Of a stretch of 64,000 nucleotides of DNA, positions 4,521 to 64,000 are shown piece after piece; position 1 is the stretch's first letter, and each line of letters starts with the position of its first letter. Under the pieces are notes generated by a model. The model worked only from the letters and a program-made list of their open reading frames with translations, was not told where the DNA came from and did no database searches. The DNA lies in assembly GCF_033153115.1 (NCBI RefSeq), contig NW_026889777.1, positions 3,782,001 through 3,846,000 of the forward strand. The letters are read 5' to 3'. The position numbers and the translations under genes were made by a program. The DNA comes from Saccostrea echinata (Eukaryota).

Positions 4521-4739
4521 ATCATCTGTCTTTCACACGCACAATACTATTTGGAAGTGGATGTTGTGTTTTAATGGATTTCTGTGATTTCTTATACAAG
4601 AATAAGAAGAGGTAAAGAAAATATCGTCCGATTTTGCTAAATAAGGAAGTGGCTTTGGATTCAAGTGGAGGTAACTCGAAAGTGCAACAATGGACTGCCG
4701 CGTGTAGAAAAATAATATATTGGAGTAGGTAGTGACAAA

Positions 4740-5353
4740 ATGCCCCGCAAGCCTCCACCAGCTGGGTCTGCATATTTCGGGGAGTACGATGCAAGATCTT
4801 ATCGACATGTGGGTGGAAACGATTACAGGTCAACCGAACGCGAGCCGTCCAGAGATTCGAGAGATGGAGGTAGGAAAAAGAAAGTAAAACAAAAGAAATC
4901 AAAACGAAAAGAACGTTCTAAGGAGAGAGATGTTGTGAATGACCAGACACGTGGGAAGCCAATTGTGGATTATGATGACATTAGTTCAGATTCTGAAATT
5001 AACGCTACGCCTCCTGCCCCCATGCAATCGTCTCGTTCAAGAGATCTCCATGAAATTTCACCTGCCACTGAACTACGAAGGTACAAATATGACAGGAGTC
5101 GAAGTAATTCTCCGATTGTTATCAGGGACAGTCCTCCACAATCTTATTCCTCCAGGAAAACGAAAAAGAGACCTTATTCTCCTGAACAGATGCATCGAGA
5201 ATCAGTGAAACATTATGCTGAGCCCCCTCGAGCATATGCACATCCTCCCAAAGCTTACAGAGATCATCGAGATATAAGCCCAGTGGGAAGTCCAAGGAAG
5301 CGATACAGGTCAAGGTCACCTAGTCCATACAGCAGGAAATCAAAAAATAACAG
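4740..5353 (+). CDS. CDK12: CDK12/13 exon 1 (N-terminal Arg/Ser-rich region)
   Basis: ATG at 4740; RS/SP-rich ORF (RSRSNSP, RSRSPSPY); ends AAC AG|gtagtc, phase 2, in frame with exon 2. Confidence 0.9.
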
Positions 5354-5780
5354 GTAGTCCAAATCATTACAATCTTGTGATGCAAACCACAGTGATCCAA
5401 ATACATGACTTGAGATTATGTTAGATTTTTTTGTAAATGTGACAATTTTGTAAATTGAAGATGGATTTAAAATTGAAATACAAGTTAAGAATACTTTATT
5501 TGGCAAAAATCTGCTTGTAAAGGAGATGAAAATTCTATAATATAAACATAATGATTATCAATTTCAAGAACTATCATCCATTGAGCAGAAGATGGAGTTG
5601 TCTGTCTTAGCAGAGGGTCATACGGCTTTAAAAACATTACTGATTTATATTTTTTCATTCATTTTATGTTCCAGGAAGTAACACGTGATATAAACTTGAG
5701 CAACCTTAAAATATTTGGCAGCATAAATCTTTCAGTTTGTTTAAATGTGAATTTGGAAACCTTTATTTTTATCATTTCAG

Positions 5781-6479
5781 TTCAAGATACCCTGAGAAGT
5801 ATGTTCGTCGATCTTCTCGAAGTAGATCTCCAAGTCCTCGTAATCGTTCACGGCGATCTAGTAGATCTCCATCCAGAGGGAAGTACTCCAACTCCAGTCG
5901 TCAAAGACGATCTTCATCCAGGAGTCCTTCTAGAAGCTCAAGTACAAAACTAACGCATTCCAAATATGCTACAAACACTCTTGCCGCAGAGCTTTCAAAA
6001 CACAGACGGGCCAGGGAGGCTAAGGAAGCAGCCCTCCTTGCCGCCAAAGGTCGCGATTCAAAAGAAACCCGACCCAGCAATAAAAATCATTCCTCTGACA
6101 AGGACAAATCTGATAGAAATTCTGTTACTTCCAGTAAAAATGATTATTTACCAAGGTCTCCTGGGTATTCCAATTCAAAAAGAAGCAGGGGTCCAGATGA
6201 AATTATGAAGTCGGAAATGAAACGAGAGGAAAGGGAAGTCAGGGAATTGAGTTCTAGAGATATGGAGCCAAGAAGAATGGAACCTAGAAGGGAAGAAATC
6301 AGGGAACCTCCAAATATCCCTTACCATCGAGATGATCTACGTAAAATGGAGGAACGGAGACCAGATTACAGAGAACAAAGACCTGAACTAGAGCTACCGC
6401 CCACCCATAGACCACCCCCAAATTTACCTCTCCCCCGCTTATCTCCTGTAGATAGTTTGGGGACTAACAGTCCATACAG
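5781..6479 (+). CDS. CDK12: CDK12/13 exon 2 (RS domain, TLAAELSK motif, proline-rich motif)
   Basis: tttcag|T TCA AGA acceptor; RSSRSRSPSPR; PPPNLPLP; TAC AG|gtagaa donor; 699 nt keeps phase 2. Confidence 0.92.
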
Positions 6480-6719
6480 GTAGAATTCTGTCAAGTTTGA
6501 TAGTCCTCACACCTTGACAGTTTTTTCCGTTATTTTATATTCAGTGACATGTAATCCTTTAAAGCCTTTGTACTTTCTACATTTTGTGCAAAAAATGATT
6601 TTATCAGAATTCATTTTGATGTAGGTGGTGCCTTTGTTAAAAAAATATAATTCAAGAAATTGAACTTCTTTGCAAGCGGATCAGGTGACAATTTTTAAAA
6701 TTTTTCTTTTTATTTATAG

Positions 6720-6866
6720 AAAACAGGAGCCTCACAGGAAGCGGATCACAGACCTGCCTATGCCGCCCATGATTGATGAACCAGAGCCAGAATACGAACC
6801 AGAGCCAGAACTGCCTCCTAAACGAGAGCAAGTTCACCAGTCCACCCCCAAAGTTAAAAAGCCAAA
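6720..6866 (+). CDS. CDK12: CDK12/13 exon 3 (ITDLPMPP...KKPK)
   Basis: tttatag|A AAA CAG acceptor; DLPMPP motif found upstream of the CDK12/13 kinase domain; CCA AA|gtaaga donor. Confidence 0.92.
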
Positions 6867-7727
6867 GTAAGAAGGCTAAAATAGACTAGAGAAAATGTTT
6901 GAAGCACATTTCAGTTGAGTACAACTGATGGTTGCAATTTGACCTGTAGTTTTGACCTTTAACTGACACAATGGATTGACCACATTTGACCTTCATCTTT
7001 AAAGTGTTCAGGCCAGTCTATATACGGTAATAATGACCAAATTCAATGGTGAGGACATTATAAGAAGTCTGCCTCTAATCTTTAATAACTAGAGTATAAA
7101 GTGCAAAATAAGCTACACTTTAAAAGCGAATAGGCTTATAAACAATTTTTTCCACAAGAAATTGGTTTCTAAACAATTTTCTTTATTAAAAAGCTCATAT
7201 TAATAGGCATCTATGATCTTTCACAAGAAGGTGTAATTTACAAAATACCTTTTTCCCTAAAATTAAAGAAATGAATTAAAAATTAAAATTCTAAATTTTA
7301 AAAGAAATGTGGATGTTCATGGACATCATAAAGAATTTGGGAACTTTATAAAAGAGTCTGCTACTTTAACTCGCATTAATTTACATAGATTTTACCCACA
7401 TCTCCTGCTTACATCTTATGATCTAGGAAATAGATTTACTTCAGGATAAACATTCCTTCCATTTTGACTTTATCATCTGGGCAACAGAATGAAAACATTG
7501 TCCAACATGCCCAATTAAAAATGACCCACAACAAGATTTCACAATGCCTGTACAACTACAAGTCTTGAAATGCACTAAAATTATGGTAAGAGAGGAGAGT
7601 GTAACTTGAATAAAACTTAAGTTACTGCGAATTAAATTTGAACTGCTTTCACACGGAGAATTTAATGTGAATTAATTTAAATTGAATTAATTTATTGCGC
7701 ATCAAATTACATCACATTAGCTCTGTG

Positions 7728-8581
7728 TAGTGCTGGGCTGATTATCGCCGATGATCAACTGTCAGTCGTTAGGAGCTCTTTGGTGCTACTAATTGATTAC
7801 AAAATAAATGTCGCCGACATCACTGACAAAAATAAAATCGTAATACTTTAATTTTATTACCAAATCCATATGAATAGAGTTTTAAAGTAGTGATGAATGT
7901 TTAAAATGTTGAACGTATCTATGCCATGTTGATATTTTTACCGCCATGATTGAATATAGGGTCAGACTAATAACAGAAAAACGGACAATATAAAGAGGTT
8001 TTAATATATACAGGAAAACATTAGTAGTCCAGACAATCTGTAAACGTAATTACAATCAATGATACAAGTCCAAATTCTGGATAACTACAATTTAAACTTG
8101 TAATTCCAAGAAATAAAAAAAATGTAATGCAAGATGGGACTAATATCAGCAGATTTTCAGTAACAGCTTATTCAGTATTTTTAATGAGAATTTTTTTGAA
8201 GTAAATTCTCATTCAATATACTTTTTTTAAGAAAGGTAAAGAAATCCTAAAACATATATATTTCAAAATATATTGATGAGAGGCAGATGAAAACAGGGGT
8301 AAGAATTTGCTCGAGGAATGGGCTGTATGTTTATTTTGACTTTACATGACTATTTCCGGTGCTATTTTCCACTTTATCAAAAGAAAAAAAATTAATAAAC
8401 ATTTATGAATATAATTTATTAAAGGATTTTTTTAGTGAAAATCTGAACTTAAATCTGAATAATTTTAATTTTTTTTATTAAATCATTTAAAGTTAAAAAT
8501 TCAATTATAAACAATTATTAATCGATTATGTGCAGCTTATTATTACTGATAATTGATTATGATACCGATTTTCCATCACTA
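7728..8581. mobile_element. Non-autonomous hAT element
   Basis: TAGTGCTGG...CCATCACTA termini; 8-bp TSD GCTCTGTG; inserted into an older Harbinger-like remnant (about 7625-8984, ending GTGTGAACAGGGC). Confidence 0.8.
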
Positions 8582-9168
8582 GCTCTGTGTGAACGCTTAG
8601 CAAAGCTAATTCGAATTTAATTCTGGCGCATGTGTAATGGCTTAATTAAGTCACATGCCACATGTCAATGGTCAGATACAGGTGTTTATGCTATTTTTGA
8701 GTGAAAAACAAAGAAAAAATATGTTGATCTCCAAAAATATGTACAGACACTATAACATTATGTCAAATGGATCTGCTCTGCATAAGGTGACGGTATCTGA
8801 TAGTGATGTCATAATTGCCCTACGGAGTAGCCTTTCTGTAGAAATAAAATTTTAATGTAAATTAGTTTACTTCAAATTAACTGTTGTGTGAACGCAATGT
8901 AATGCGCATTAGTGTAAATTGTATTTTACTTCGCACTATTGTACTGCGAATTCAATATGTAATGCGCATTTGTGTGAACAGGGCATAATTTTTCTCTAAT
9001 TAATTGGTCAAAGGTCACCAGATGATCATTTTGGTAATCTAGGTTCATCTCATTTTGTCTTAACACAAGTTAGGTAGGAAAGGATGAGGGAACAATTGCT
9101 ATATTTGTGAATTTTTTTCCTTGTTAATGAACAGATTTCAGTGTCCTTTTAAATCTTAACCTAGAGTA

Positions 9169-9294
9169 TGCTGTTTGTGAGGTGTTGAATTCAGTTTGGG
9201 TTTATGCACTTAAGTAGAACAGCTAGATAAAATGCCTTCTATCACGCCAGGGAGTTTTCTTTGAATTTTCTGGGTCTGGCATTGGGCTATACGT
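9169..9294 (+). ncRNA. Candidate box H/ACA snoRNA, copy 1 (CDK12 intron 3)
   Basis: Hairpin GCUGUU..AACAGC; H box AGAUAA 9225-9230; second hairpin with upper stem CCAGGGAGUUU/GAAUUUUCUGG; AUA box variant at 9289, 15 nt after the upper stem; paralogous to copy 2. Confidence 0.5.
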
Positions 9295-10269
9295 AAACAG
9301 TGGTAAAAAGTTCAAGACTTTTGGGAGATCAGAATGCTTAGTAGGTCCTGAACACAGGTACTTGTGGAAAGAGTCCCCCCTCTCCCTGATATACAACCAC
9401 AGGACTTGTACAGTCAGCTAGTTAAATTATATTAATCACACTTGTATATATATCATGTTTACCATATATGAAAAATATAGCGAAGACCCTTAAATAGCCA
9501 TTCCATACAAAAAATATACACGATAAGAGAGAAATCTGTATGTTTACATTGTACCCCCGCTGGTCTTTCTGGGTTGAACAGCATGTTTTTATTTCATTTC
9601 AACCTAAAATGCCAGATTTTATTACATAAGATTATCAAATAACAGAAGTCAAAAATGTTTGAAACTTGTTTCTAACACAGAGTTGTGAGTGGGGTTATGA
9701 CATTACCTTACACCAAGGTAATTTTGGCATGCTCAAGAACATCGGTAGAAAAAATGTATAATCTATGTCCATTTCATAACTTTCAGTATTTCCATTAATG
9801 CATAAATAGGCGTAAAATACACATAAAAATATATAAATACCCACTTCCAAAAAAATTTGGTGTCAAAATAACTAAAAAAAAAATTCAAGCTTTCAAAATT
9901 TTCTGACCAATTCAAAACAAAACCGGAAATCCAAAGAAAATTTGTCATGTTTGCATACTTCAGTTTGGCTTTATCAGTAAGACTGGAGATGTTTTCAAAA
10001 CTTTGGATCAATAACGCCCAAGTAGTCGACTAATAGTTTTGCAAAAGATTCAGCAATTTGCAGAAGTTGGCTTTGTAAAGATGTATCCTCCATTGACAGA
10101 ATCGGTAAAATGTGTCAATAAACAACAAACACATTTAATTTTTTAATATTATTTATAAACATAAAATTAAGATGCAAGCAAAACCAGAATTCATTTTAAC
10201 TGTCTAACATTCTCTTGACTCCCAAAATTTATTTCAAAGAGTAAAATAACCCTTGATTTTCAAAGTTGG

Positions 10270-10970
10270 CAGAAACACTGACAAGGTCATTTAGGAAAGA
10301 TCACTGGCAGAAAAACATTCATCACCTGTCCTGGCCATATCTTTTAAATTGAGCAACTTTGAAAGATGATGCTTATGACTCAAGGGTGTCTTGACCTTGA
10401 CCAAACATCTTTAAGGCAAGTTAAAGGTCAATGATAAGAAAAAGTATTTATTTTTGTCTGGTCCATAAGATTCTAATGGAGAGACATTGGTAGAACTTTC
10501 CTACTTCATGATAGATTACTTATGATTTGAGTATTTGGGCAAGTTGAAGATATCTGGCAGAGAAATGTTAATTTCCTAACTTAGCCATATCTTGTAATGG
10601 AAAAACATTGGAAGCTAGTATTTGACAGAAAGATTGCATACGACACAAGGGTGTTTTATGACCTCAGTCTGAGGCCATTTGGGCAAGTTGAAGGTCACTA
10701 GCAGAAAAAGTGTTTAATTTGTGTTAGATCCATTTATTTCTTCCTTGAGAAGCATTGGAAATTCATACTTGACACAAAGATTACTTATTTTGTGAGTGTG
10801 TTATGACCTTGACACGGTCATTTTTTGCAAGTTCAAGGTTTCTGACATTAAAAAATGTAAAATTAGTGTCTAGTCAATAAATTTATATAAGAGAAATGTG
10901 TGAACAATTGAAAAAAAAGAATGGGCAGTGGAGAGTATCATTTGTGAGCTCGTTAACAGTATCTAGAGTT
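10270..10970 (+). repeat. Degenerate ~145-bp tandem satellite (Helentron-associated type)
   Basis: Four to five recurrences of GACCTTGAC..GGGCAAGTT(G/C)AAGGTCACTGGCAGAAAAA..AAACATTGGAA. Confidence 0.55.
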
Positions 10971-11077
10971 CATTGTCAGAGTTTAGCCATGTTTGTCAGT
11001 CTTTCTTTTACCTTAATATGGGCAAGTTAAACCTAAGTACTATGGAATTGTGGGATTCTATACATCCAGTTGTTCTC

Positions 11078-11202
11078 TGCTGTTTTTTGAGGTGGTAAAG
11101 CTTCCATGTTTTATACACTCAAGCAAACAGCAATATAAATGCCTTCTTTCATCATGGATAATTTTATCTTGAATTTTCTAGATCTGGAAGTAGGCAACAA
11201 GT
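11078..11202 (+). ncRNA. Candidate box H/ACA snoRNA, copy 2 (CDK12 intron 3)
   Basis: Hairpin UGCUGUUU/AAACAGCA with upper stem UUGAG/CUCAA; H box AUAUAA 11133-11138; hairpin UGCCU..AGGCA directly followed by ACA 11197-11199; 125 nt. Confidence 0.55.
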
Positions 11203-11534
11203 GTATGTAATTTGAGATGTAAATAAAATTACTCTCAATTTTTGAGTACAGTAGGTCAGGAGTGTATGAACATAAATAGGCATCTTTTCCCCTTAAGTTC
11301 TAACATCATGAAATATGCCTTTGTGAAAAGTTCATAATTGTACCCTCGTATACCTCAAAGACCTTTCTTAAATGATGTCAGACTGAGGTTTATATGTATT
11401 AATATGAAAACATAATATTCTTGAAAACATATTGAGCAATTGTAAATGATTGAAACAAATGACATGGATTGAAGAAAGAATTGGAGAATGGGGTCTTGAG
11501 GTTTTGTAAATTGCCCTGACGTAACTTAGTGCTG

Positions 11535-12670
11535 TTTTTATGCCACCATAATCAGAGATTTTGAGGCATAGTGTTTTGGTCTGTCTGTTCACAAAAACTT
11601 TAACTTTGCCCACAACTTTTGAATGGTTGGTGCTAAGACTTCATATTTATCATGTGTATTCCTTGTGACAAGATCTTTCTTTGGGTATCAACATTTCTGA
11701 CCTTATGACTTTGACCTACAAGTTTGACTTATTTTTTTGTAAAACATGAACCAATTCTAACCTTAGCAAATACTTCTGAACCAGGGATCGACATTAACGG
11801 TTGTCCAATTGCCCGGGGCAAGTAAATTCCCAGTTCGGGCAAGTGAAAATGCCAATGTACTTGTCCGATTGGGCAAGTGAATATTTCCGATAGAAACATT
11901 TTTTTTTCCAAATCTTGCATTAGTTTTAAACGAAACAATAACACTTTCCGCCAAGAACATATCAAGAATAGTTTCTTAACATGAATAGTTTATTTTTTCA
12001 CTCACAGAACACCAGTTATTCTCTGCACACAATGTATTCTGATCAGGATATGTATGTTTCAAAACATGGCAACTGTTTTCCTTTAGTGTGGCCTCAGTTT
12101 TCCAGAGAAAAAAATCAAAATAATATATATATTTAAGATGTAAATTTTATTTTAAAGAAAATATATACTGCTGCATGGCAGTGCGAGTTTTCAGGATAAA
12201 TGAAAGGACAGTGGTATACATGTACAGTATTTACAATTGTAGGATCAGCGACACATCAACATTTTTTCTTGGCAGTTAACGTGCCGATAGAAAGTACTTT
12301 ATCACACATAAATTAAATTACCCGTATTTTCTTCTTTCTAAGGTTTGGGCAACCAAGTTTTGCATTCAGACAAGTCAAAATTTGAGTTCACTTGCCCATA
12401 GGATAAGTGAATATGAAAGTTAATGTCTATCCCTGTGAACACTTGGTGATAGGGCATTAATATTTCACATGTATATTCATTTTGACATGAGCTTTGAGTA
12501 CCATATTATTTTTGACCTTGTGACCTTGACATTAGAGTTTGGCCTACTTTTGAAAAACTTATTTTTGACATTGTGACCTTGGCTTTGGAATTTGACCTAC
12601 TTCTTAACTTTTATCTTAGCCATGAGCCACCATACAAAGGCATCAGTTTTTCATAAACACATTTTGTTTG
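11535..12670 (+). mobile_element. Non-autonomous Helentron/Helitron-type element (interrupted by the 11782-12435 insertion)
   Basis: TTTTTATGCCACC...GGCATAGTGTTTTGGTCTGTCTG 5' end; TGACCTTG core repeats; GGCATCAG...AAACACATTTTGTTT 3' end. Confidence 0.55.
11782..12435. mobile_element. Non-autonomous DNA transposon, CAGG termini, 5-bp TSD (hAT5-like)
   Basis: CAGGGATCGACATTAAC...GTTAATGTCTATCCCTG; TSD TGAAC on both sides. Confidence 0.85.
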
Positions 12671-12948
12671 AGTTGGTAAATCTACTAGGACTTTTACATT
12701 CATGTGGCTACATTAACACATAAAAGCATATATTCTACTTGTTTGTAGATTTCCTTATTATAAGGGTATAAGTGTTATTTTGTTTACGTATGTTGTCTTC
12801 CTTCATTTGATAAATATATAGGATAGATCATAAAAGAAAACTTCTAAATTTAATTATTAGTTCCTCAGAATGTTTGAAAGCATACAGTTGTATTTTTATG
12901 TAATTTTCAATGTGTTAGATATCATAGAACTTTGAATATCTATTTTAG

Positions 12949-13085
12949 GATTTGCCAGAAGAGACGGTTAGATGAGAGGGTCAAAGGTGACTGGGGAGAG
13001 AGATGTGTCGACTTGTTTAACATTATAGAAATCATTGGGGAGGGAACTTACGGTCAGGTGTACAAGGCTAAAGACACCTTCACAG
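12949..13085 (+). CDS. CDK12: CDK12/13 exon 4 ([10 protein letters not shown], Gly-rich loop [12 protein letters not shown])
   Basis: Manual translation [45 protein letters not shown]; ttttag| and |gtaagt boundaries. Confidence 0.95.
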
Positions 13086-13403
13086 GTAAGTTCCTATAGT
13101 ATGACTGGACAAAGCTGCCATTAAAGGAGTAACTCCTACATAACTGTCTAAGATGATTGCCTCTGGCAACTATAAATTGATAAAAAAAAAAAATCCAAGT
13201 TAAAAATTGAAGTTCAGGGGGCCTGTATGCAAAAAAAAAAATTATATATATATATATATATATAAAACTAGCAAGTATTTTGTGGACAACTGAAAGCTTA
13301 TCTCAATGTATTCCTGTTCACTAAGAAAGGTTTTGAAGGATTTTATTAAAGTTGAGAAAGGAATTCCCTGCACTCTAATGTATCATTACTTTTGTTTTTG
13401 TAG

Positions 13404-13574
13404 ATGAATTGGTAGCCTTGAAAAAAGTAAGACTGGAAAATGAAAAAGAGGGATTTCCCATCACTGCTGTACGTGAAATAAAAATCCTTCGGCAGCTTAA
13501 TCACCCCAACATAGTTAACCTGAAAGAAATAGTCACAGATAAACAGGATGCCTTAGACTTTAAAAAGGACAAAG
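13404..13574 (+). CDS. CDK12: CDK12/13 exon 5 (VALKK, PITAVRE helix)
   Basis: [56 protein letters not shown]; canonical AG/GT. Confidence 0.96.
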
Positions 13575-13783
13575 GTAAGGAAAGCTAAGTATCACACAAT
13601 AATGACATGCATGTTACTTTCTCTACTAGTAGAATGTTGTAATACTGAAAGATAGTCAGTGAAGGTGTGAAAATAAAATCAGAGCAAAAATCTGTTTACA
13701 GTAATAGTTATGATTCAATTTCAATCCCCCCCCCCCCCCCCCCAATTCCATGATGTCCTACAAGTATGCTTTTAATTGCACAG

Positions 13784-13973
13784 GTGCATTTTATTTGGTG
13801 TTTGAGTACATGGATCACGACTTGATGGGACTCCTCGAGTCAGGAATGTGCCATTTAAAAGAAGAACATGTGGCGTCTTTCACCAAACAGCTCCTGGATG
13901 GATTGAACTATTGCCACAAAAAGAATTTCCTACACAGAGATATCAAATGCTCCAATATATTGCTGAATAACAG
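13784..13973 (+). CDS. CDK12: CDK12/13 exon 6 (hinge FEYMDHDL, catalytic HRDIKCSN)
   Basis: [21 protein letters not shown]...[17 protein letters not shown]; canonical AG/GT. Confidence 0.96.
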
Positions 13974-14334
13974 GTAAGTCAGTGGTGCAAAAATATTCAT
14001 TCGTATTTATGATTTTCACTTTTTGAATGCATTTTTAGTCTTACTTGCAGGAAATTGTCATAGGCCTAAGGCCTGTATGTCTGTCTGAATATTGGAGTCT
14101 GTATTTATTGCATATGTATTTTTTGTGATTATTTATTTTTCCTCTCAAGACATTCAACTGTGATGAATGTGATTCAGCATGCATAACCTTCATTGTATTC
14201 TTTTCTGACAAAAAATTACGTTATTTGTAAGTTCTTGAATGTCACTTCTCTTGGAAGTTTTCTGCAGGTAGAAAATCTTTGTCGATCTGCCAGTGGAGGC
14301 AGACATTGCCGTAACTAAATGTGCTTTGTTACAG

Positions 14335-14496
14335 GGGTCAGATTAAATTAGGAGACTGGGGATTGGCTCGTCTGTATGAGGCGGATGATAAAGACAGATT
14401 GTACACAAACAAAGTGATCACACTGTGGTACAGACCCCCAGAACTTTTACTGGGTGAGGAGAGATATGGACCTGCCATAGATATATGGAGTATTGG
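14335..14496 (+). CDS. CDK12: CDK12/13 exon 7 (DWG motif, T-loop [14 protein letters not shown])
   Basis: [54 protein letters not shown]; ttacag| and |gtaatg. Confidence 0.96.
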
Positions 14497-14710
14497 GTAA
14501 TGTTATTATATACACCTTTATTACTTCTTAAAGATTCAATCAGAAATCGATTGAAATCGGTTAGAATTTTTTTGCTTCTGTGAACAGATTTAAGGATTTT
14601 GTTGAAATAGACTTAAGTATCTTGTTGAAATAGATTAAAGTTGGACTTTTTGCATGGAAGTTGCAAAGTGACATAACATTACATTAGAATGTCTGTTTGG
14701 TGAATTTCAG

Positions 14711-14905
14711 GTGCATTTTAGGGGAGTTGTTTACAAGGAAGCCAATATTCCAGGCAGGTCAAGAGTTTGCTCAATTGGAGCTTATCAGCAAGACCTGTGG
14801 CTCACCCTGCCCTGCTGTGTGGCCAGATGTCATTAAACTGCCCCTGTTCCACACATACAAACCCAAGAAACAGTACAGAAGGCGGCTAAGAGAGGAATTT
14901 TCTTT
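14711..14905 (+). CDS. CDK12: CDK12/13 exon 8 (kinase C-lobe)
   Basis: [15 protein letters not shown]...[16 protein letters not shown]...[12 protein letters not shown]; canonical AG/GT. Confidence 0.96.
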
Positions 14906-15090
14906 GTAAGCAGTTCAGTTCAATAATAAAAAAAATTTCATGAAAAAAATCTGACTCTTCAAAACACTCAAGTTCATGTTACTAGACTGCTATTTATTAC
15001 AAGATAACAAGTTAAGTATTATATATATATATTGATAAATTTTTGTATATGAATTCAGATATTTGACTTTACAAGTTTATTTTCTTGCAG

Positions 15091-15222
15091 CCTGCCAAAG
15101 ACAGCTTTGGATTTAATGGACCAAATGTTAGAACTGGATCCATCCAAGAGAATCACAGCTGAGGCGGCTCTTATTTGCCCCTGGCTGAGGGAGGTGGATC
15201 CCATGAGAATACCCCCTCCAGA
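15091..15222 (+). CDS. CDK12: CDK12/13 exon 9 (end of kinase domain)
   Basis: [43 protein letters not shown]; ttgcag| and |gtaaga. Confidence 0.95.
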
Positions 15223-15471
15223 GTAAGATTGCTGAATAAATTGCTTCAAATTTTGTAAAATTTAATTGGCTCATAATTTTACTTGTGAGAATTTGTTCAT
15301 AAACATGTGTTTTTTGATGCTATGAATAGACCATTTGACCATTTCCAAAAGTAAGAATTTCATGTTTCAGAAATACATGATAAAGAAAAAAATCTTTTCT
15401 TCTTACAGAATGAATTTATATAACATTTTGTTGACGATTTTATTTCATTAGTATGCATTTCTTCCCAATAG

Positions 15472-16717
15472 TCTACCTAAAGATCAAGACTGTCATGAAA
15501 TGTGGTGCAAAAATAGGAAAAAGCATATGAAAGAGGCACAGAAGAGAGGAGAGGATTCTTCTTCAACTCAATCCAGCACCACCAAAGTGGCATCTAGTGG
15601 TTCAAACTCCAGCATAGGAAAGACTGAAGGAAAAGATGTTAGGCGAGCCTTGTCTAGTGACAGGACACTGCCACCAAAGACCAAACCCTCAGCTACAGGG
15701 GCTAACAGCACAAACAAGACTCCAGTGGGGATCTTTAATAGAAAAGACAAAGTTGGTGGTGCCTCGGGGATTCCAGGACTAGATGTGGCTGCCCAAGAGC
15801 AGCAGATAGAGGCTCCACCTACAGGAGAAAATGAGGTGAAGGAGGTTGTGGCCCCTGTCAGTAATCAGCTGTCACAGATGATATCACTGCTTCAGAAAGG
15901 CATGTCCGTTCCTGATGTGGCCAAGAGTGTGAATGTGACATTGGATGAACAAACTCAACAACTGATGAGTAATCTTAATGCTCAACTCATGCTTGCAGCA
16001 CAGTTATCTACAGATCAAGCAGCTGCAGTACCTCCAAGTCAGCCAGAAACCTCTGTGAGCCAAATCCCTTATCCTTCTGAGGGATACCGGCAAGATTATG
16101 GAAATCATAGTTCAAGCAATATGTTTGGGGGGGCCAAAGGGGGTGGGTCAGTGGAGGGTAATCCTAGTTTGTACAGTCAGGACTCAAATTCAGGGATGGG
16201 GAGTGAAAATGCAGGAGTGAAAGCTGCCTTAGCTCAGCTGTTGGCTCAGCAGGGAATGCGAGTGAGCCTGGGAGGAACAGAGATATCTGCATCTGAAACC
16301 CGAGTGAGTCACACCGATACATACAGTAAGCCAGAACCTAGCTACTATTCTGATAGACCTGACTACAGTAGATCTGGAAGCTACGCTGGTGGAAGTATTT
16401 ACTCTGATGAAGGTTCTAGGGGAGGTTACTCCTCTAGTGGCGACAGCTACGGTGCGCAGTATAATCCCCCTAGTGGTGGATCTGGTGGAGCGGGCTATTA
16501 CGGACAGTATCCTGGAGAAGGAAGACCACCTAAGTCATATGCAGAAGCAGCTCAAGGTGTTCCTAAACAACCCAGGAGTATACTGAAGAATAAATCATCT
16601 AGTTCAGCACTGCCTGCAAAGCCTGCTTTGGATCCTCCTATAAATCCAAGAGGGGGTTATCCCCCACTCCCCTCGGGACACAGTGGGCATTCTAGGGGTG
16701 GAAGGGGAGGTTGGTAA
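15472..16717 (+). CDS. CDK12: CDK12/13 exon 10 (DCHE extension, polybasic cluster, low-complexity C-terminus, stop)
   Basis: caatag|T CTA CCT; LPKDQDCHEMWCKNRKK matches the CDK12/13 kinase extension; the ten exons sum to 3693 nt = 1230 aa + stop. Confidence 0.93.
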
Positions 16718-51884: not shown

Positions 51885-52084
51885 GTCACTCAAGACGTTC
51901 GAAAGCGATCACATGGACGAAAGCATGTTTGCCTGGGTAGTGAAAGGAACATACAATCAAACAAGGGGTAAGGCTAGGAAGAACGATTTTGAAGACGCAG
52001 ACTGCACAAAGAAATGTAGGGATGGATGGTGGGACAATTGGTGCACCTCAACTAACCCTGCAGTGTGCTCCAAAAAGATTACAT
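51885..52084 (+). CDS. Multi-CTLD receptor exon: CTLD 2, C-terminal half (divergent)
   Basis: FAWVVKG...DCTKKCRDGWWDNWCTSTNPAVCSKK; ttttag| and |gtatgt; phases 2/1. Confidence 0.75.
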
Positions 52085-52182: not shown

Positions 52183-52336
52183 CAGACAGATGTGTTGAAT
52201 CAACTAAAAATACCAGTTCTGACGTGTGCATTTGGACAACAACAAAAGCTTTTACCTTCCATGAAGCACAAGAAATATGTCTATCACATAATGGGACCTT
52301 CGCTGATTCTAGTACCTTGAATTTAGTGTTCAACTT
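52183..52336 (+). CDS. Multi-CTLD receptor exon: CTLD 3, N-terminal half
   Basis: DRCVES...VCIWTTTKAFTFHEAQEICLSHNGTFAD; NAGNAG acceptor (52183/52186); |gtaagt donor. Confidence 0.8.
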
Positions 52337-55466: not shown

Positions 55467-55825
55467 TGTCCTTGTACATAAATTGGCGTATTCAAAATTT
55501 AGCGCAATCACTGGGTATAGAGTTGTTGGCGTATTCATGAATTAACGCTACACACTAACGCACTCTATATTATATTAATAAATGATTTCTTAGCGGTATT
55601 CATGAATTAGTGCATTGTTGCCCGCGCCATAGCCGCTAAAATATGAAGCCCGCTTTTGTATGTACACATACAGTGTTTTACGTCCCATTCGAGAATTTTT
55701 CAGTCATATAGACTCACCATATACCGGTGAAGGGCTTCAAATTTAGACCTTTACTCGGCACTCGGGGTCATTGAGCAATGAGGGTTCTTTATCGTGCCAA
55801 CGCCTACCGTGACACGGGGCCTCGG

Positions 55826-55863
<38 letters not shown>

Positions 55864-56678
55864 CCTGATCAAAGAGTATCCGTCTGTCGTCTGTAGTCCG
55901 TAAACTTTTCACATTTTCGACTTCTTCTCAAGAACCAGTGGGCCAATTTCAACCAAACTTGCCACAAAGCATCCTTGGGTAAAGGGAATTAAAGTATGTT
56001 CACAGAAAGTGCCGCGCCCTCTTTCAAGGGGAGATAATTAAGAATTCGTGAAAATTTGGTGGCATCTTTTAAAAATCTTCTTCTCAAGAACCACTGGGCA
56101 AGAAAAAATGAAACTTATGTGAAAGCTTCATTACATACTGTAGATTCAAGTTTGTTCATATCATGACTCCCGGGGGTAGGGCACGGCCACAAGAGGGGGT
56201 CAAAGTTTTACATAGGAATATATAGGAAATGTCTTTAAAAATCTTCTTCTTCAGAACAGCAAAGCCATGATTAGTCATATTATAATAGAAGTATCCTCAG
56301 GTAGTGAAGATTCAAGTTTGTTCCAATCATGACCCCTGGGGGTAGGGCAGGGCCACAACAGCGGGTTAAAGTTTTACATGGTTTTATATATGTGTTAAGG
56401 GGCATTTGAGTAAAACGCACTGAAGACTTCAAATAATGGAATGACCTGACAACCCTTGGAATGGACTAGTCATACTAAAGGGTATATAAGGCAAAGCTTT
56501 GGGAAAGTCAGGCATTCAGAGGTAGCTGAAGAAGTTGGATGCTGATTCAACAATAAAGAAGTTAAGGTATTCCATCCCTAATAGCAACAGATTCAATAAA
56601 ATTGAATAAATAACAGATGTGTAGGTGTTTAATACTCAGTATATTTAGACATAATTCCCATTGATTACTATTAGCATG

Positions 56679-58377
56679 CAGAGTGTCCCAAAATATATGA
56701 TACCATTTGAAATACCTGCCACAAACACATCCCTTGGCCAATTTCTTTGATATATGTCTCTAAAAATATTTGAATAAGTACAATTCCTTAGCAGCAAAAT
56801 ATTCCAAAAAAATTATCTCAATTATGAAATTGCAACATATCAAATTTACATCAAACTTTTGCAAAAAAAATACAATTTCAACCAAAATGGATTACCAAAA
56901 GAGCTAGCCACCCTCATTTTGAAAGTGTAATTATCAATCTTAGTCTTAGGTTACTGCTGCATAACCCAAACCAGAATCCTTGATATATATAAAAGGTTTA
57001 CCTCTGATGAAAATCCAAAAGTTACTACCGGGACAGGCACTGTTGTCTCAAGTTAGGGAACTTTGTGCAATGTCTAGATATTATCATTACATGGATAGAA
57101 CATCATTTAGAAGGCATCCTTAAAAAACCATAGCATTTTGCAAAGTGAACTCGTTTTGTTGTTTTCTTTTTAATGACTGTCAAATTACGAGGGCTGTTCG
57201 AAAATTATTGAGACAATTACTTCTACTCCACAAAGGACAGAGATAAATTCATGAACATTCGTCAACATTTTATAAAGAACAAATAAAAGAATTGTGCAAA
57301 ATTTCTAATTCATAGGATAATTAAATAAGTTCCAGTGAAATTATAAACAAGCATATATCTATTGACCTGGAACAGCATCGTTACGTCATTTTAACGTCAA
57401 GTCAGCCGATATTTTCTCATAGTGAAATGATCGGGAAGCGTTCAATCTACTTCCTCTGTCATTACATATAACATTCCAAAATTCAAACTGTCTCTTATAA
57501 CACTTAAACGATTCTTCAAAATTCTTTAAAAAGAATTAAAATAAAACGTGTGCTGTTGCTATCCCAGTGTAAAATATACACGAAGTGTCATATACAGGTT
57601 GACTTAGTATCATGCAGTATCGAGTTGTGCAACGCGGGTCAACGTTGTTTAGTCCGTAATAATTGATGGTCGTCCGGAGCTTTTGTTTTTACTCTGGTTA
57701 AATTATTTGTAAGGAAATACCAATGAAAAAAATAAACCCTTAGACATGTTTTATTGCATTGTTATTGTTTTAGCAGGTCGTTTAGTCTGGACAAGAGTTC
57801 TCAATACCGCTACACAAAATTTTAGATATGCTCGCTGCTCCGCCTTGATGTCAAAATCCGTTTTGTCGTCGTTATCAGATTGCTATACCGCGCTTAAATT
57901 TTTTAATGATCTTCTTATTTCTGATCGAAATTCTAGCAAACTTGCACGAAATGAATTCCAAGTTAAATTGAAAAATTATATACATAATTTGAATTATTTT
58001 CTCTCTTACAATGGGTCCACTGGGAGTTTTAACGTTGGTTTTACATATTTTCAATATCTGATTTCGTGACTGCGCCGGGTACCTTTACCATTGACACATT
58101 TATATACCATTGAAAAGAAGAAATAAAATATTTTTAAAATAGTTCTTGCTTTTATTAATTCTTAGTGTTTGTCAAACGTACATGCAAATTTTCACCGAAA
58201 AACGTACATTAGAAAGAAGAATATACACAATGTCTCAATAATTTCCAAACAGCCCTCGTATGTGAATAAAATTGGACAGTATATGCAATGTTTAAAATGC
58301 ATTTGTTGCAATCCAATATTCATTAAATTAGGTTTTACGGAATCTTGAAATGGTATCATATATTCTGAGACACCCTG
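56679..58377 (-). mobile_element. Tc1/mariner MITE family A, copy 2 (interrupted)
   Basis: Reverse complement of 37363-38043 once 57188-58258 is removed. Confidence 0.85.
57188..58258. mobile_element. Mariner-like MITE B, innermost layer
   Basis: CGAGGGCTGTT(C/T)G(A/G)AAATTATTGAGACA TIR; TA TSD. Confidence 0.88.
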
Positions 58378-59009
58378 CATGTAAGGGTGGGATGTGTCCT
58401 AATTTATGACCTTGAATTTTGGTAAGGGTTATCTCCCTCTGTTTTTAATTAATAAAAAAATCAATTCAAAAAAAATTATCTAGTAAAAAAAAAAGGTCGT
58501 TTTCAATTGTCCTTTTATTTCTAATGTTTTAATGTATCTTTCCACCACAGTATTTATTGATATTCTTATTATTTGAATTTTTTTAATTTAAAAATAAATC
58601 GCTTGTCCTCATAGACTTAAATGCATTTTTTGTTAATCGACACTGCTTAGTTAACATTTTTGAAACTTTCTCTTGCTAAATCCTTTTCTACTGTGAAATG
58701 CTTGTACATAGGAAATATCTTTTAAATCTTCTTCTCTAGAACAAATAAGCCATAACTAGTTATATTTATACAGAAGCAACCTTAGGTGTTGTAGAATCAA
58801 GATTGTTCAAATCATGGGGGCACAACAGAGGGTCAATTAAGTTTTGCATAAGAAAAAAATATAGGAATCATCTTGAACAAATCTTCTGCTCAAGAACAGC
58901 AAAACCATGATTAGTATTATTATTGTAGAAGCATCCTCAGGTAGTGTAGATTCAAATTTAGGGTGGGTAGAGTAGGGTCACAATGAGATTTACATAGGAA
59001 AACATAGGA

Positions 59010-59347
59010 ATGATTGATTGTATGTTGTTTTATGTCCTGTTCGAAGTTTTCACTCATATAGAGGCTTTACCATATACCGGTGAAGGGCTTCAAATTTAAA
59101 CCTTTACTCGGCACTGAGGGCCATTGAGCAGTGAGGGATCTTTATCATGCCAACGCCTGCCGTGACATGGGGCCTCAATTATTAAGGTCTCATCCAAAGG
59201 ATCCGCAACTATCACTTCAAAGTGTCGAGTGCTTCGCAAAGGAACAGTTGCTACCTATTTTTATCGACGTAGGTCAGTCGCAGCCGGGGCTCGAACCCAT
59301 GACCTTCCAATCACGGAGCGAGAGCAGAATGAGCTACCGTGACGGTG
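59010..59347 (-). mobile_element. tRNA-SINE, second subfamily, inserted in the Helentron satellite
   Basis: Core shared with the other copies; flanked by a GGAAAACATAGGAA duplication. Confidence 0.8.
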
Positions 59348-59510
59348 GAAAACATAGGAAAAACATCTTCATAACTCTTCTGTTTAAGAACAGCAAAGCC
59401 ATGATAAGTAATATTGATATGGAAGCATCCTGAGGTAGTGTAAATTAAAGTTTGTCCCGCCCTCCCCCGTTCAATACTGAACTGATTTCTGCTTCTTCCT
59501 AGCCAATGAG

Positions 59511-59546
<36 letters not shown>

Positions 59547-60049
59547 AGGTTTCATCCGAAGGACCCGCAACTTTCACTTCAAAGTGCCGAGCGCTTGACG
59601 AGGTAACAGTTGCTACCTAGTTTTTATCGACTTAAGTCAGTCGCAGCCGTGATTCGGACACACGACCTTCCGATCACGGAGCTAGCGCTCTACCGAGGTA
59701 CCGTGAAGGTTTAACGAGAACAAACGCTAATCACGTTTTGAAGTTGACACCTATTGCACCTTTTTCATGTTTGGAGTTGGTCCCTTAAAGTGTTATAGTC
59801 AGCCGTCGATTGTAAAAGTAAGCCCCTTCGTAAAACTCCATAAAAGATATTTCTTTATAAATTCCCCTTTTTAGGGACATTATTAAATGATAATCATGCA
59901 AAATTTAGTTAGTATTGTTCGATTGTTTACAAAGTTATAAACATTGTCTACCACCTTTTGGGATAATCCTCGTACATTTAGTAAAGCATAAGATGTGCAC
60001 GCAAGTAAGTTAAAGGTATTAAAATGTTTTAATGTTTAATACTATTCAG

Positions 60050-60279
60050 GACAGTCCAGAATGGTTCAAAAGTTTGGATTGGAGTACATGATTTATATTT
60101 GGAGGGATATCTCATGAATATGGTGAATGGATCAGTGTGTTTGGGGACGGATTGGCAGGAAGCGCTCCTTGAGAACAACGACACTACTAACTGTATGTCA
60201 ATGGATACACAAGACGGGACAGTGAGGATGGAAGCATGCAACATTTCATTGCCCATTGTCTGTTCTTCTAGCCCAGGAG
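60050..60279 (+). CDS. Multi-CTLD receptor exon: CTLD 3, C-terminal half
   Basis: KVWIGVHDLYLEG...NCMSMD...MEACNISLPIVCSS; ttcag| and |gtaact; phases 2/1. Confidence 0.82.
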
Positions 60280-61256: not shown

Positions 61257-62075
61257 ATCTTAAAAAAAAAAGCATCAGCATGAAGGACAATTTGAATGTG
61301 CCTATAAGAAGAGATTTTTATTTCAAACAAATCGAAGATTTTCAAAATTTTGTAGAGCGTCAGGTTGCTTTTTCAAAAAATGTATCCCAAGTATGGTGCA
61401 CTAACGGATCTCAAATCATCGAAGTATTTCCCACCAGTTATATACCAAATCCAGTTTTACCAGTAAGTGACCAACGGAACAACATTAGTACCAGAATCAC
61501 AAAGGGATCAACAATAGTATCGTCATATTTATCAACCACAGAAGAATCAACAGTATTGCCATATTTATCAACACCAGAAGGATCAACAGTTTTGCCATAT
61601 TTATCAACCACAGAGGGACCATCAACGGTATTTCCCTATTTATCAACCGGATTAACAGCAGTATTGCCGTATTCATCAACCACAGAAGGATCAACAACAG
61701 TATTGCCATATTTATCAACCACAGAAAAATCAACAACAGTGTCCTCATATTCATTGACCATAGAAGTATCAACAACAGTATTGCCATTACTTCCAGCCAC
61801 AGAGGTATCAACAACAGTGTCACCATATTCATCAACCACACAAGGATCAACAACGGTATTGTCATATTTATCAACCACAGAGGGATCAACACTAGTATCG
61901 CCAAGTTTATCAACACCAGAAGGGTCAACAACTGTTCCGCCATATATATCAACCATGGAAGGATCAACAACTGTTTCGCCATATTTATCAACCACGGAAG
62001 TATCAACAACAGTTTCGCAATATTTATCAACCATAGAACCAGATCCATCAACAACAAATACTTCAATTAGGCTGG
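61257..62075 (+). CDS. Multi-CTLD receptor exon: Ser/Thr-rich mucin-like stalk
   Basis: 819-nt symmetric phase-1 exon; about 14 repeats of a 12-13 aa unit (YLSTTEGSTTVLP). Confidence 0.8.
61500..62040 (+). repeat. Coding minisatellite, 36-39 nt unit
   Basis: TATTTATCAACCACAGAAGGATCAACAACAGTATTGCCA repeated about 14 times. Confidence 0.9.
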
Positions 62076-62912: not shown

Positions 62913-63134
62913 GTTGTCTTTATGATGACTTAAACTATGATCACAGCACCACGGTGATTGTATCTACCAACGCTAGTACAGTGGGATTTGCTTTCGACAA
63001 TTTCCAAAATTCACTTCCGGTTGGAACAGAAATAAGATTTAGATGTTTAGACAATCACCGTCACAGGGGAGGAGATCTTACCCGATACTGCCGTACCAAC
63101 GGAACATGGAGCGGAGAAAAGCCAGTCTGTGCAA
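62913..63134 (+). CDS. Multi-CTLD receptor exon: CCP/Sushi domain
   Basis: C...VGTEIRFRCLDNHRHRGGDLTRYCRTNGTWSGEKPVC (four Cys, conserved W); phases 1/1. Confidence 0.88.
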
Positions 63135-63752
63135 GTAAGCAAGGAGTCTGTTGTTTCAGATTTCTGATTTTAGTGTCATAAAGTCATAAATATGTTATGT
63201 ATTGAAATGTATGGAGATATCGAACAGTATTCAAGCTCAAAAGTCCATTAACATTACAAAATAGGAGCAGAGCAAACACGGACCTCCAAAACATCAGAGG
63301 TGGAATGAGTTAAGAATCCGCAAAGCATTTGTATATAATCTCAAAATTGGTTCCTTATTGAAGAAATCATTTCAGTTTAGTGATGAAGCGAATATGCATG
63401 TTTACTATTAATTTTACTATTCGATTAGGTTGTTACTACTAGTAAGCTACAGAATAATCTGGAGGTATTTGCTCTATCGGTTTGAAAATGGCAAAACAAT
63501 TTGAAGTGAAAGGGGAATGTTTTTGTTCTTTTTTTTATATACATGTAGACGTAACAACTTTTTAATGACATGAATTAACTTTATATTTTTGTAACCTAAA
63601 GATTGTGTTGATATTAAAAATAAGAAATCTGAAAAGGGAAACGTAATTAATTGGGACTAGAAAGAAACACAACATTAACAGTACATTGTAAAATGTGTAT
63701 GGTAAAAAAAACTGTAAAATATACTAGTAATTATATTTTTACCCATATTTAG

Positions 63753-64000
63753 GTTGCATGTGTCCTTGTGAACGTATGAAGAAACAGATCATCATAAAAA
63801 ACGATATGGAGTTAAAAACTAAAATTAACAAGATGAAAAAAGATCTAGCAATTAACAAAACAGAAGTAAACCAACACCTCCGCAAAAGAATATCTGCTTC
63901 TGATCCGCGACCTTCTGCGACAGTTATGGGAACGATATTAGGTCCGCTCCTTTTAACACTTTTTATTGGGGCCATCGTAATAAGCGATATCACAACGATG
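63753..64000 (+). CDS. Multi-CTLD receptor exon: CxCPC, coiled coil, SASDPRPSA motif, transmembrane helix (runs off the window)
   Basis: CMCPCERMKKQIIIKNDMELKTKINKMKKDLAINKTEVNQHLRKRISASDPRPSATVMGTILGPLLLTLFIGAIVISD; tttag| acceptor in phase with the Sushi exon. Confidence 0.82.

Follow-up and report, generated by a model that had tools for sequence, protein, structure and literature searches.

At its 3′ edge, the 64,000-nucleotide stretch of Saccostrea echinata DNA analysed here (the window) holds an exon encoding a membrane-proximal module that the initial annotation had likened to the tails of many uncharacterised mollusc membrane proteins with differing ectodomains, which raises the question of what such a common tail is and what it would do. 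The module exon was placed at 63753–64000 on the plus strand, continuing past the window edge, from its phase-1 acceptor and its translation: a pyrimidine-rich tract and an AG at 63751–63752 lie immediately 5′, the first two bases finish a split codon, and 63755–64000 encode 82 stop-free residues. Translation bore out the order of parts as first described: CMCPC comes first, then a run rich in Lys, Leu and Ile, then RKRISASDPRPSA, and after it a hydrophobic helix that contains Gly, and Asp78. The proposal that the module occupies its own phase-1 exon held for the 5′ side, the only phase visible because the 3′ end falls outside the window; the same exon also encodes the transmembrane helix.

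In general form, the module runs from CxCxC through two short basic helices and RxxxSAxDxRPSA to a transmembrane helix followed by Asp. On the plus strand of the window, the CxCxC cluster (C1, C3, C5) spans 63755–63769, and an amphipathic basic helix (residues 17–31, 63803–63847), with a hydrophobic stripe at 20/24/27/31 covering two heptads, was assigned from AlphaFold models and column statistics. The second helix (39–46) and the turn R43-xxx-S47-A-x-D50-x-R52-P-S54-A55 were delimited by conservation and entropy (63869–63919), and the transmembrane helix (58–77, 63926–63988), with a conserved face A55/G59/G63/L67/I74 and D78 at its end, by conservation and hydropathy, the best Kyte-Doolittle 19-mer (mean 2.29) starting at residue 58. 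An N-glycosylation sequon is present at module position 34 (63854–63862), and 28 of the 149 aligned rows have the same.

With splicing predicted at canonical AG/GT sites from 51885 onwards, the frame stays open over 578 codons, and on this prediction the module exon ends an open-frame C-type lectin/mucin/Sushi gene on the plus strand. Immediately upstream of the module is a Sushi (CCP) exon of phase 1-1 (62913–63134; PF00084, E = 5.7e-10, and splice sites), whose donor is phase 1 and which leaves the frame open when spliced into the module. It is preceded by a mucin-like Ser/Thr stalk exon of phase 1-1 (61392–62075; 227 aa, 41% S+T), with its 5′ boundary set by comparison with P0002, and by the second half of C-type lectin domain 3 (60050–60279, phase 2-1; PF00059, E = 7.5e-6). 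The first half of that domain is predicted at 52186–52336 (phase 1-2) from a frame open into the next exon, with sub-threshold Xlink/UL45 matches only. A divergent C-type lectin domain 2 probably has its second half at 51885–52084 (phase 2-1), predicted from a Cys/Trp pattern and an open frame without Pfam support, and a possible first half at 45331–45471 is doubtful, having an uncertain donor site and an Xlink match at E = 0.2 only. All four introns that separate domains between CTL2b and the module have phase 1, and the intron within the lectin domain is phase 2. Further upstream, C-type lectin domain 1 (29504–31732) is made of two exons (29504–29660 and 31506–31732; PF00059, E = 1e-4) that give a 127-aa open frame with phase 1 at both ends, and probably belongs to the module gene or to a tandem neighbour. 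EPN and QPD are the usual C-type lectin sugar-binding motifs; the lectin domain 1 region (31504–31767) has QPN in their place, and lectin domain 3 shows neither.

A signal-peptide exon for the module gene was not found in the window. Among RNA contigs from three runs, with RNA type guessed, DNA possibly present and intronic repeats dominant, three near-exact matches to the mucin exon were found, with no splice joint among the joints listed, and these matches are given no weight as a sign of expression. The closest relative, P0002 ('mucin-4-like', Saccostrea cucullata), is 84% identical over the module and 51–59% over the ectodomain exons, and runs 42 residues beyond the window's module sequence as a basic tail. 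Elsewhere, the window holds a protein-kinase gene with Arg/Ser-rich exons at 4716–16717 on the plus strand (Pkinase, E = 2.3e-17 at 13714–13974), presumably resembling CDK12/13, as well as high-copy interspersed repeats in long introns (47100–48400, 55500–56900 and 58800–60100, at very high contig depth), and 135 N at about 47.7–47.9 kb.

A phmmer search with the module among 1.84 billion protein representatives gave 243 clusters (50% identity) at E ≤ 0.001, so the module is not a chance sequence. The best 150 of these 243 clusters were used for alignment, and P0016 (a zinc-finger protein) and P0091 (a reverse transcriptase) were left out of all counts as spurious, giving 149 rows (the query and 148 relatives) with a median pairwise identity of 34%. 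Despite this divergence, R52, D50, G59 and D78 are 98–100% conserved (149, 148 and 148 of 149 rows for the first three, 144 of 147 for D78), followed by S54 (142), L31 (141), R43 (140), S47 (139) and G63 (129 of 148), all of these figures being inflated, also in comparison with other domains, by the gathering of relatives through similarity to the query module. Among rows that extend that far, the three cysteines are kept in 94–97% (C1 in 120 of 126, C3 in 129 of 137, C5 in 130 of 134); CxCxC is complete in 103 of 149 rows, and 20 rows have it incomplete or lack it. The second helix with the R43–A55 turn has the lowest mean entropy of all module segments. Query bias alone does not account for this conservation, since the family consensus has a residue other than the query's at five positions (for example, S39 at 86%), and three loci picked with a pattern spanning R43–R52 alone also have the cysteines, G59 and D78. 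The module was more conserved than the adjoining Sushi domain in 85 of 91 pairs from 14 proteins (median 41% vs 33%).

Thirty representatives were looked up, and the 25 that are named are all molluscan (22 bivalve, 3 gastropod), a range that rests on an oyster-seeded search and the best 150 of 243 clusters and does not imply a mollusc-only distribution. The bivalve genera are Saccostrea, Ostrea, Crassostrea/Magallana, Argopecten, Pecten, Mizuhopecten, Ylistrum, Mytilus, Potamilus and Mactra, and the gastropod genera Haliotis and Batillaria. An Atlas search by features returned unnamed, chiefly molluscan clusters, and the best five rows of an Atlas structure search were molluscan clusters aligned on the module, their heads being Lectin_C, Sushi and WSC; at TM < 0.5, these rows are no more than a lead. 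Homologue searches seeded with words had little sensitivity (1, 1 and 11 matches), and low-sensitivity pattern scans found no module relative among 23 candidates in viral contigs or 36 in prokaryotic genomes.

The initial annotation knew of no named domain for the segment, and database comparisons agree. Against Pfam-A, the window's module (P0001) gave a best E of 0.21, and no Pfam model above cut-off covers the module in the best 150 of 243 clusters (best five matches per protein); when 62 members were compared with Pfam, the best-shared family was Amnionless, in 5 of 62 (E = 0.0064; best 25 of 83 families). NCBIfam gave no match for P0001 and scattered weak matches in members. No description of the module was found in a literature search covering chiefly open-access main texts. 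Judged by these comparisons, the module is a large, apparently unnamed mollusc domain family.

Ectodomains recognised by Pfam (E ≤ 0.001) were present in 45 of the 148 relatives listed and belong to nine families, some in combination: Sushi (17), Lectin_C (16), IgGFc_binding (7), Ephrin_rec_like (6), WSC (3), Methyltransf_FA (3), Ig (2), EGF (1) and chitin-binding (1). The other 103 are mostly short fragments or low-complexity stalks, with at least 40% Ser/Thr directly before C1 in 22 of the 69 longer relatives that have no Pfam ectodomain. All four head types named in the initial annotation (CTLD, WSC, Sushi and mucin) were thus recovered, and Ig, IgGFc-binding, ephrin-receptor-like, FAMeT, EGF and chitin-binding heads were added to them. 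Saccostrea echinata alone has three types of head (lectin; ephrin-like with WSC and FAMeT; IgGFc-binding), and since heads differ inside a single species, the module proteins are paralogues and not orthologues alone. Neither outcome that would have refuted the initial annotation, matches confined to direct orthologues or a match to a characterised domain, was therefore observed.

The suggestion that recognition domains are exon-shuffled onto the module is consistent with phase-1 domain exons in the window and at further loci, the arrangement of class 1-1 modular proteins. In locus L002, the module exon follows a run of Sushi exons across a junction whose donor and acceptor are both phase 1, and a tandem second copy is built alike; the module acceptors of L001 (apparently) and L003 are phase 1 as well. 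The L001 exon also holds a Thr-rich stalk, so the module can share its exon with other sequence, and in L001 and L002 the frame past the module reaches a stop, as in a last coding exon. A residue pair expected from phase-1 read-through, which tests for a phase-1 acceptor indirectly, was found in 13 of 19 entries with a hydrophobic run before C1 vs 18 of 97 others. Across 46 labelled modules placed on a tree, head type switches 14 times, compared with a minimum of 8 and a mean of 24.7 after shuffling, and because ectodomain type clusters in this way, much of the family is attributed to ordinary duplication. Starred branches of the tree force a single Sushi origin only, and since 82 columns resolve little, repeated origins by shuffling are left unproven by it. 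Both module copies in L002 have a CxCxxC variant, and an in-frame TGA takes the place of the invariant Gly59 codon in the second Sushi-plus-module copy (L002:9524–9925), which lies beside an intact copy and is likely a pseudogene. Two database gene models, P0021 and P0044, contain two modules each with repeated ectodomains, and are probably fused tandem genes, hinting at tandem arrays.

Regarding topology, N-glycosylation sequons occur in 111 of 149 modules, compared with 54.8 ± 5.5 (maximum 68) in 200 composition-preserving shuffles, a disulfide-bonded Sushi domain stops three residues ahead of C1, and all but two of 57 long relatives (55) lack a further hydrophobic helix upstream. On these three grounds we strongly infer that the module lies outside the cell, with type I topology as the most likely arrangement. 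Signal-peptide-like starts were recognised by a crude hydropathy rule in 11 of 57 long, Met-starting relatives, and P0147 and P0108 have signal-peptide-like N-terminal stretches. The opposite orientation, in which the module would face the cytosol and derive from or mimic the ICL3-TM6 junction of aminergic GPCRs, draws on the best PDB sequence match of profile A1, to the ICL3-TM6 junction of the 5-HT1D receptor (domain E = 0.009; window 63881–63943), and on the distribution of Lys/Arg, which averages 4.5 in the 17 residues before G59 vs 3.1 in the 18 residues from D78. However, the match fell to E = 0.1 with a deeper profile and was absent with a single query, it leaves D50 unmatched and shows no counterpart in the alignment to the Trp/Pro of the CWxP motif, and the doubling of sequons over shuffles, the Sushi domain next to C1 and the lack of upstream helices in long relatives all stand against it. 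Class A GPCR ICL3-TM6 was therefore rejected as an identity, the resemblance is treated as convergence, and we regard a cytosolic, GPCR-derived module as extremely improbable.

The cytosolic tails are short (median 22 aa; at most 30 aa in 105 of 147), and an ITAM-like pattern was found in 3 of 147. Following D78, residues tend to be hydrophobic at +1, +4, +5 and +8 and basic at +6 and +9 (window 63989–64000 and relatives), a periodicity that makes a membrane-parallel cytosolic helix probable. A GPI-anchor signal has its hydrophobic segment at the very C-terminus, without a cytosolic tail; this identity was rejected on account of the invariant Asp and the amphipathic, Lys/Arg-bearing tail that follows it.

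Two AlphaFold monomer models (pTM 0.35 and 0.37) agree on helices at 17–31 and 39–45/46 with a loop between them, so that the run first described as a single helical stretch of about 35 residues is indeed helical in the models, but divided in two. Both models place loop 47–52 directly ahead of the membrane helix, modelled at 53–81, which leaves the invariant R52 one residue outside it, and neither shows confident tertiary packing. With a low-pTM helical model, Foldseek gave no match at E ≤ 10, and the best result of a second fold search (Z = 4.0) was to generic helices. Column statistics showed conservation along one helix face of the transmembrane segment. A self-folding anchor that needs no partner, combining an interfacial turn with lipid contacts and inherited by one expanded gene family, would agree with the clustering of ectodomains on the module tree and with the placement of loop 47–52, given that Ser-x-x-Asp and Pro-Ser are typical helix-capping sequences. 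Ordinary anchors, however, do not keep several residues at 98–100% across bivalves and gastropods at 34% identity, and with the models also lacking confident packing, we think such an anchor quite improbable.

Another explanation is that the module is a stalk for self-assembly, in which interchain CxCxC disulfides, a short coiled coil and a small-residue helix interface would cluster the heads for avidity without any partner; lectin domains often oligomerise through their necks. Each complete cluster (103 of 149 rows) has three cysteines, one of which would be unpaired unless chains pair, and interchain disulfides are plausible. The stripe at 20/24/27/31 has Ile-rich a positions and Leu-rich d positions, and a small residue at 55 occurs together with G59 in 145 of 149 rows. 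Against this, the stripe covers two heptads only, short of the long coiled coil that had been proposed. Both g23 and e28 hold a basic residue in 70 of 149 rows, compared with 10 in which they are complementary, and the net charge of the module is positive in 133 of 149; such like charges argue against simple self-pairing. Conservation is highest in the polar residues of the turn and in D78, not in the heptads. A homodimer prediction run without an alignment (score 0.01, mark 0.32) counts neither for nor against a dimer. Matrilin-type assemblies, which are extracellular homo-oligomers, have Cys-x-Cys directly before a heptad helix of four or more heptads, and the module is similar in having CxCxC ahead of a helix. 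It differs in its three cysteines, its single 15-residue helix, its basic g/e positions and the lack of a Pfam match, and in running on into a conserved turn and membrane helix. Taken together, self-assembly as the whole role of the module is a serious contender that we nonetheless consider unlikely.

The invariant residues might instead be a transient signal read by a common sheddase, intramembrane protease or ER/Golgi cargo receptor, since one-to-many conservation suits any common reader. R43 is followed by a basic pair in most rows, a dibasic [KR]R occurs in 71 of 149, and many of the ectodomain types are also known from secreted proteins, as described in the available part of an oyster mantle study (10.1101/2023.01.19.524809). 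The more specific proposal that RKR is a convertase shedding site did not survive the alignment: RKR is present in 29 of 149 rows, RxxR in 7, Arg at position 45 in 26%, and the furin consensus R-x-K/R-R within positions 36–52 in 1, with Leu at P4 in the query, so a furin/proprotein-convertase site was rejected as a feature of the family. Conservation on both membrane faces (R52 outside, D78 inside) and along one helix face also speaks against a transient signal in general, which appears to us rather improbable.

The reading we favour, at a probability of roughly 45% and hence tentatively, is that the module serves many mollusc single-pass proteins as a docking element for a membrane partner common to all of them. 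Near-invariant polar residues at both membrane faces, a conserved helix face, net positive charge and short tails recur among heads that are unrelated and on both sides of the bivalve–gastropod divide, the pattern expected of many paralogues fitting one partner. This partner would supply the signalling or transport missing from the short tails. The basic helices and the S47-D50-R52-S54 turn would bind the partner at an acidic juxtamembrane surface, the G59/G63/L67/I74 face would pack against one of its helices, D78 would find a basic counterpart at the membrane's inner boundary, and the CxCxC disulfides would cap the stalk, with new receptors arising as phase 1-1 domain exons are added ahead of the module exon. 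Classic intramembrane basic–acidic coupling is absent, because the transmembrane core (K/R/D/E within positions 58–77) is charged in 2 of 149 rows only. A one-residue indel between G59 and G63 divides the family about half and half, and this, with the uncharged core, counts against a rigid, vertebrate-type interface; the invariant polar residues could equally form a self-contained turn or a signal for sorting or processing enzymes.

FXYD, basigin and uroplakin II/III are small families whose members dock on a polytopic partner by means of a short conserved motif made up of stalk and helix; the module has no sequence match to them, and its family differs in comprising hundreds of clusters with exchangeable heads. 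Adaptor-coupled immune receptors have short tails, and the module tails are likewise short and without an ITAM of their own. According to the available part of PMC13107469, recognition chains are coupled to signalling chains that they have in common by way of conserved charged residues in the membrane, and the examples CD89/FcRgamma, NKG2C/DAP12, NKG2D/DAP10 and TCR-CD3 are like the module proteins in their variable ectodomains and charged membrane residues; the same part places an Arg of CD89 near the outer end of its helix, and the module has its invariant Arg just ahead of the helix. Unlike these receptors, to which it has no sequence similarity, the module has no basic residue inside the helix and conserves an 80-residue extracellular element too, and a mollusc adaptor is hypothetical. 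By analogy the module would work like the adaptor-coupled receptors, but it falls outside their class. The design principle is already known; what is new, as far as comparison of sequences goes, is the module with a partner hypothesis that can be tested.

According to the available part of PMC10140915, lectin-like genes have expanded greatly in bivalves and many of them lack characterisation; it describes bivalve CTLD proteins with WSC, Sushi and Ig combinations, including uncharacterised bivalve-specific ones. The window gene, with CTLD, Sushi and transmembrane helix, is of the same kind; the words 'motif' and 'coiled' are absent from the main text of that paper, which, in the part available, describes no common membrane-proximal module. 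Unlike the CTLD grouping, the module also links proteins without any CTLD. Such architectures are likewise present in the oyster mantle study, whose available part describes no common anchor. In gastropods, the Biomphalaria GRC/PTC1, PTC2 and LG5R clusters contain single-pass proteins with divergent ectodomains that are tied to parasite resistance, their cytosolic parts mostly small and without known domains, and PTC2 genes reportedly have no known domains and no homology beyond gastropods (available parts of PMC7494358 and PMC13712769). These clusters were compared with the module by description only, and no common motif is described in those parts. More broadly, the parasite-resistance loci of snails encode many single-pass proteins whose cytosolic parts are small and featureless (PMC13712769, available part).

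At minimum, the module is of significance as a large domain family absent from the Pfam version searched. One profile with four near-invariant residues gathers a receptor family that is scattered under misleading names, such as mucin-4-like, SCUBE1, PLA2 receptor-like and cell wall integrity component. Beyond this, molluscs may have a multi-chain receptor system of their own, in which hundreds of exon-shuffled lectin, Sushi, Ig, WSC and other recognition chains would join one signalling/transport subunit through the module, a possibility that we take seriously while judging it somewhat unlikely. If true, the mollusc system would be an independent solution to the role that FcRgamma and DAP12 have in vertebrates.
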